NCBI RefSeq assembly: GCF_048403405.1
Contig: NZ_CP183129.1
Reading direction: 5' to 3' (one strand)
From: Escherichia coli
GTDB lineage: Bacteria; Pseudomonadota; Gammaproteobacteria; Enterobacterales; Enterobacteriaceae
DNA: 64,000 bases
This document shows positions 4,755-5,253 of this stretch, piece by piece. A program made the position numbers and the translations under genes. The notes under the pieces are model-generated. The model saw only the letters and a program-made list of their open reading frames with translations, ran no database searches and was not told the origin of the DNA. The stretch's first letter is position 1. Every line of letters begins with the position of its first letter.

Positions 4755-5253
4755 ATGAATATGAAGACCATTGAAGATGTATTATTCACCTGCTTTCATA
4801 TACCTACAGCGCAGAAAAACAATTAACCCGGGCACTGGCAAAACTCGCTAGAGCAACATCAAACGAAAAATTAAGTCAGGCTTTTCATGCGCACCTCGAG
4901 GAAACTCATGGACAGATTGAACGAATTGATCAAGTTGTGGAGTCCGAATCGAACCTGAAAATTAAGCGCATGAAATGTGTGGCAATGGAAGGTCTCATTG
5001 AAGAAGCTAATGAGGTCATCGAAAGCACCGAGAAAAACGAAGTGCGTGATGCCGCACTGATTGCCGCTGCACAGAAAGTCGAGCACTATGAGATCGCCAG
5101 TTACGGGACCTAGCAACGCTGGCTGAACAATTAGGTTATCGTAAAGCAGCGAAGCTTCTGAAAGAAACCCTGGAAGAAGAAAAGGCCACCGACATCAAAT
5201 TGACTGATCTGGCACTTAATAACGTAAATAAGAAAGCCGAAAATAAAGCCTGA
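4755..5253 (+). pseudogene. yciF: yciF (DUF892 stress protein) disrupted by two single-base deletions
   Basis: ATG 4755 reads MNMKTIEDVLFTCFHIPTAQKNN*; the homologous reading frame continues in a second frame (..IIHLLSYTYSAEKQLTRALAKLARATSNEKLSQAFHAHLEETHGQIERIDQ...EIASYGT*) and a third frame (LATLAEQLGYRKAAKLLKETLEEEKATDIKLTDLALNNVNKKAENKA*); shifts fall in short T and C runs. Confidence 0.7.

Follow-up and report, generated by a model that had tools for sequence, protein, structure and literature searches.

A yciF Pseudogene with Two Single-Base Deletions in Escherichia coli Phylogroup D and Its Probable Origin by Stepwise Decay

The yciGFE Locus and Its Surroundings

The DNA analyzed here is a stretch of 64,000 nt from the Escherichia coli contig NZ_CP183129.1 (assembly GCF_048403405.1), hereinafter referred to as the window. 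Its genes are arranged in the order trpD'-trpCF-trpB-trpA (ending at position 4109), yciG, yciF, yciE, and, on the minus strand, a remnant of the ompW 3' end. Beyond this remnant lie a lambdoid prophage of approximately 52 kb, a full-length copy of ompW, and the genes yciC, yciB, yciA, tonB, yciI, and kch. The placement of yciGFE between trpA and ompW is the same as in strains K-12 and 042.

The first gene of the yciGFE operon, yciG (4490..4669, plus strand), encodes a 59-aa protein with a KGG stress repeat (Pfam PF10685, 64.8 bits), whereas yciE (5299..5805, plus strand) encodes a 168-aa DUF892 paralog of YciF (Pfam PF05974, 173 bits). Both genes are intact, as had been stated in an earlier note made from the sequence alone. 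This follows from the Pfam matches and from the RefSeq protein identifiers, which coincide with those of strain 042, namely WP_000807651.1 for yciG of MS 69-1, whose DNA is identical, and WP_001079500.1 for yciE of the strains identical to the window. Between them is located the yciF pseudogene (4755..5253, plus strand), derived from the gene of a DUF892 ferritin-like stress protein; it is 499 nt long, compared with 501 nt for the intact gene. These boundaries, which the earlier note had proposed, are also those of the pseudogene annotated by PGAP in the identical sequence of MS 69-1.

The ribosome-binding region of yciE is its own, 45 nt downstream of yciF, and hence any effect of yciF on yciE could be exerted only via transcriptional polarity. 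Between yciG and yciF, a GC-rich hairpin (4713-4734, 9-bp stem) precedes a T tract. The C>T substitution at position 4741 (plus strand), 14 nt before the yciF start codon, extends this tract from TTT to TTTT and, judging from the sequence, might strengthen termination ahead of yciF. A scan of the locus for promoters and terminators revealed nothing specific to yciF.

The prophage, approximately 52.3 kb long, is integrated in the 3' end of ompW without inactivating this gene (junctions 5863-5990 and 58171-58313). The resulting ompW (58173-58826, minus strand) is full-length (217 aa), its 3' end being supplied by the phage, and the displaced native 3' end (5866-5985, minus strand) is retained as a remnant beside yciE. 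The OmpW protein of the window is 94% identical to that of K-12 and contains a 5-aa insertion near the C-terminus; a 217-aa ompW is also present in CMZE046, with no prophage adjoining. The Rfam matches within the prophage (37194-38196, 45152-45327, 53531-53582, and 7671-7869) comprise two STnc100 elements, three tRNA genes, the sok antitoxin RNA, DicF, and IS009. Relative to otherwise 100% identical prophages of other strains, that of the window has an insertion of approximately 1.4 kb, with 88% of the region 40000-52000 covered.

Lesions in yciF

The lesions were called by aligning positions 4740-5260 of the window with the intact yciF genes of E. coli 042 and K-12 (501 nt each). Relative to both genes, the window contains exactly two 1-bp gaps. 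The first lesion (4782..4783, plus strand) affects codon F10, where TTT is reduced to TT in the context GTA-TTT-ATT; this 1-bp deletion of a T shifts the frame by -1. The second lesion (5111..5113, plus strand) is a 1-bp deletion of a T in codon L120, where TTA is reduced to TA in the context ACC-TTA, creating a TAG immediately after T119 and pushing the remaining 46 codons into the third frame. In the six-frame translation, the native reading begins in frame 0 (codons 1-9), continues in frame 2 (codons 11-119), and finishes in frame 1 (codons 121-166). The alignment and the translation thus agree with the earlier observation that yciF is split over three frames by two 1-bp deletions. The alignment also revealed a substitution absent from that note, a G>T at position 4799 (plus strand) that converts GAT to TAT (D16Y in native numbering) and is private to the lineage with both frameshifts.

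The two deletions had been ascribed to short T and C runs. This holds for the first of them, which occurred in TTT, and not for the second. At the second site, the sequence is ACCTTA, ACTTTA, or ACATTA in each of the seven alleles that were compared (the K-12 record has ACA-TTA at codons 119-120), and CCC occurs in none, which identifies the lost base as a T of a TT doublet rather than a member of a C run. Runs of four or five identical bases are found at eight places in yciF (three A5, four A4, and one T4), and none of the eight contains an indel.

Reading from the native ATG ends at a premature TAA (4824..4826, plus strand) after 23 codons, nine of them native (MNMKTIEDV) and 14 out of frame; an ORF at 4707..4826 in the list of open reading frames ends at the same TAA. 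The stop at codon 120 is the second one within the native-frame segment of the gene. Upstream of it, a residual 58-aa ORF with a GTG start (4937..5113, plus strand) covers native residues 62-119 and is emitted by gene callers as a DUF892 fragment. After repair of both frames, the translation matches PF05974 with 171 bits (the cut-off being 23.7) over profile positions 1-158 of 159, so that homology extends over the whole DUF892 domain, and it is identical to the sequence of the K-12 crystal structure (PDB 2GS4) at 164 of 166 positions. As it stands in the window, yciF provides no uninterrupted ORF for the four-helix bundle with the ligands Q54, E113, and E143.

Distribution of the Double-Frameshift Allele

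Over the 1331 nt of the yciGFE segment, nine complete RefSeq records match the window with 100% identity; five of them were compared further and proved identical to the window over 3981 nt. In all of the identical records inspected, PGAP flags yciF as frameshifted. The records belong to strains MS 69-1, ST2747, TUM14771, TUM1226, GN02461, 4621, and isolate 68 (OX030728). Three of them represent ST2747, as one Belgian isolate and two of its laboratory derivatives, sequenced with PacBio (PMC3983296); since these share one parent, the nine records correspond to seven independent strains, originating from Belgium, Japan (two strains), the USA (three strains), and Spain. ST2747 was assigned to phylogroup D together with UMN026 and 042 (PMC4765171). 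A literature search with the names of the carrier strains returned only the PacBio announcement of ST2747 and the phylogroup D paper. A strain labeled ST69 is just 97.9% identical to the window in this region.

All seven carrier strains share with the window the two deletions, D16Y, and the trpA-yciG-yciF-yciE context. They differ from it at the downstream side, where the native ompW is uninterrupted beside yciE, whereas in the window the prophage is integrated there. The junction of yciE, the ompW remnant, and the prophage, as it occurs in the window, was found at 100% identity in none of 5426 complete genomes. Being absent from these genomes and from the seven carriers, this junction marks the window as a further, independent assembly.

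The residual 58-aa ORF, which ends at the new TAG, was used as an exact tag for the second deletion. Its exact product is encoded on 304 contigs (NCBI, ENA, and Logan) and is listed by 409 blocks of the assembly collection. Nine further loci were retrieved with this tag, including a gut-metagenome scaffold from ENA and WGS contigs from NCBI, and in all nine the 499-nt pseudogene is identical, D16Y and the two deletions included. An exact 41-nt pattern that covers D16Y together with the first deletion had no match in the JGI metagenome contigs. For MS 69-1, the same truncated ORF is given by two separate records, EFJ82790.1 (HMPREF9534_01155, from an earlier series) and the complete genome CP146675. 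At the lesion sites of yciF, no base is missing in more than 4500 other genomes.

These data bear directly on the suggestion of the earlier note that the indels could reflect sequencing chemistry as much as biology. An artifact, in which both deletions would be platform-specific homopolymer miscalls in a truly intact yciF, has a negligible probability. Both indels do affect repeated bases (T3 and T2), prophage gene C of the window does have a 1-bp indel in a genuine G7 run, and some related long-read assemblies are rich in errors nearby, with trpB and trpA split in L020, L021, and L027. However, the identical allele occurs in independently sequenced material, i.e., the complete genomes of seven other strains, the nine additional loci, and the 304 contigs, and MS 69-1 yields it in both of its records. 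Moreover, the more than 4500 genomes intact at both sites come from the same range of technologies, the allele tracks one haplotype exactly, and the longest runs of yciF (the three A5) are untouched, while the lesions lie in T3 and T2, below the artifact criterion of approximately five bases. The platform cannot be the source of lesions that are tied so exactly to one haplotype and leave the longest runs alone. The earlier note had named independent sequences with the same deletions as the observation that would establish a true pseudogene; such sequences exist, and they support the pseudogene reading and refute the chemistry reading for yciF.

Five chromosome-scale assemblies (L020, L021, L022, L024, and L027; NCBI GCA_0456xxxxx) have the same yciF allele and, like the window, a prophage at ompW. 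In these assemblies trpB and/or trpA are fragmented, and 2-5 gap openings relative to the window are observed in 5.8 kb. They look like indel-rich long-read assemblies, and their gaps are unlike the reproducible lesions of yciF.

The indel of the prophage, which the earlier note had grouped with those of yciF into three homopolymer-associated indels, is present in the sequence. It is located in a C-like gene (25653-27157, minus strand) for an S49 peptidase with head protease/scaffold function, which is frameshifted by the reduction of G7 to G6 at 26880-26885. This G6 is the sole difference in 4701 nt from the 118UI prophage, where the gene is intact (1506 nt). Most relatives have G7, and G6 is observed in 10 unrelated complete genomes; in one of these, SF-468 (97.8% identical), the C gene is annotated as frameshifted. 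Two origins are conceivable for the G6 variant, a hot spot of slippage or an error repeated among assemblies. Both genes are thus frameshifted by 1-bp deletions, but the deletion in C lies in a genuine G7 run and is met again in unrelated backgrounds, whereas those in yciF affect runs of three and two bases and belong to one haplotype. The homopolymer label was therefore overstated for yciF, and the indels of the two genes do not form one pattern.

With respect to a reversible change, yciF might be phase-variable, or programmed frameshifting might still yield a functional protein from it. Beyond the location of the indels in short runs, nothing speaks for such a switch or recoding, and its probability is vanishingly small. 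Slipped-strand phase variation requires tracts far longer than 2-3 bases, and the state of both lesions, including the run length, is invariant in all 16 carrier loci. The two shifts are both -1, i.e., in the same direction and without mutual compensation, and the second deletion results in an immediate TAG. Finally, Rfam detects no RNA element in the locus.

History of the Allele

The codon-10 deletion was identified in 13 complete genomes, comprising the nine records of the double-frameshift allele and four genomes with the codon-10 deletion alone: 18KM2445 (dog, Switzerland), VCSW5 and VCSW7 (both from soil, Hong Kong), and 2012C-4221 (USA). The four single-frameshift alleles share with the window the T deletion and the C>T substitution at -14, but lack D16Y and the codon-120 deletion, and in the flanks they diverge from the window by 1.2-2.0%. 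Strain 042 is at a similar distance, and mosaicism is evident in the region. Among eight compared alleles, the C>T marker is private to those with the first deletion: position 4741 is T in the window, 18KM2445, VCSW7, and 2012C-4221, and C in 042, K-12, 2014C-3338, and 21F61. The linkage to this marker suggests a single origin of the codon-10 deletion; as the case is built on one SNP in a visibly recombinant region, the deletion in the TTT might also have recurred.

Secondary lesions following the first one are present in this small sample. In addition to D16Y and the codon-120 deletion of the double-frameshift lineage, private lesions on the shared codon-10 deletion include K137* in 18KM2445 and Q60R in 2012C-4221, with none in VCSW7. 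Two more substitutions of 2012C-4221, D99G and A121S, were considered as signs of decay and rejected; both also occur in the intact alleles of 2014C-3338 and 21F61, leaving Q60R as the only change counted as decay in this strain. Intact alleles differ from each other almost only synonymously, e.g., the yciF genes of K-12 and 042 by 11 synonymous and two non-synonymous substitutions. An intact allele of the repaired haplotype was found in none of the 5426 genomes, and the nearest intact alleles match this haplotype at all but 2 of 202 positions. Taken as sequence data, this distribution of alleles is the signature expected if a single inactivation long ago was followed by a relaxation of constraint, with relaxed selection being suggested by a small number of private changes.

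The comparison of alleles indicates two steps of decay. In the first step, codon 10 lost a T of its TTT on the haplotype with C>T at -14, and this loss alone stops translation at codon 24, ahead of Q54, E113, and E143. In the second step, one descendant lineage, including the window and at least seven phylogroup D strains, gained D16Y and the deletion of a T from codon 120. Other descendants of the first step acquired their private lesions separately, K137* in 18KM2445 and Q60R in 2012C-4221.

Functional Consequences of the yciF Loss

YciF of Salmonella is an oligomeric iron-binding ferroxidase that needs Q54, E113, and the bridging E143, and it guards against bile- and iron-driven ROS (bioRxiv 10.1101/2023.01.20.524870). 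The intact protein (K-12 b1258, PDB 2GS4; Salmonella, PDB 4ERU) is a DUF892/PF05974 ferritin-like ferroxidase encoded at the same operon position as in the window. In contrast, the window yciF has no full-length ORF, and its stop at codon 24 is upstream of Q54, E113, and E143. Since this stop precedes every metal ligand, the allele is presumably null. As a consequence, the cell would have no YciF ferroxidase, while YciG and the paralog YciE would still be encoded.

Such a loss is plausibly tolerated, because approximately 707 of 5422 complete E. coli genomes (~13%; e.g., L013 and L014) lack yciGFE, with trpA followed by ompW after about 50 nt. These genomes are also without YciF; however, the whole operon is gone from them, including YciG and YciE, instead of having decayed in situ. 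In FLI21, an IS1 element sits between trpA and ompW.

The inactivation of yciF could also have been selected in a human-associated phylogroup D lineage, e.g., with respect to the handling of iron, bile, or peroxide. This alternative concerns the cause of the loss only and not the reality of the pseudogene, and we consider it unlikely. The null allele is old enough to occur in diverged backgrounds and is common, as the 304 contigs attest; the absence of yciGFE from some 13% of E. coli and the link between H2O2 resistance and yciFE expression in APEC (PMC12419081), together with the bile/ROS protection by Salmonella YciF, point in the same direction. Nonetheless, repeated independent inactivation at different sites was not observed in this data set, where the first lesion appears to be single, and the published phenotypes suggest that YciF is protective rather than costly. 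Besides, a neutral null allele can persist in a clonal lineage without selection. We regard it as more likely that a dispensable RpoS-type stress gene decayed neutrally than that its loss was selected. A more specific version, in which the codon-10 null allele is old, recombining, and positively selected, having spread in part of phylogroup D with the loss of YciF and retention of YciE being advantageous in the human host, is very doubtful.

Implications

The yciF gene of the window combines disabling lesions relative to intact orthologs with the presence of the same lesions across independent isolates and assemblies. Based on the compared sequences, it is almost certainly a genuine, vertically inherited, and lineage-fixed null allele made by stepwise decay; for the window itself, the pseudogene assignment is based on its identity with other assemblies. 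The pseudogene is already known, since it is flagged by the RefSeq annotation, and in this sense it is an ordinary finding. Its importance is mainly a matter of quality control: the frameshifts of yciF can be trusted as biology and do not speak against the quality of the assembly. Likewise, the 58-aa DUF892 fragment encoded on the 304 contigs is what is left of a pseudogene, not a small protein. The deletions in codons 10 and 120 may be usable as simple lineage markers. With regard to E. coli as a species, the locus provides one more example of the dispensability of the yciGFE stress operon, which has decayed in a phylogroup D lineage and is absent in about 13% of genomes.
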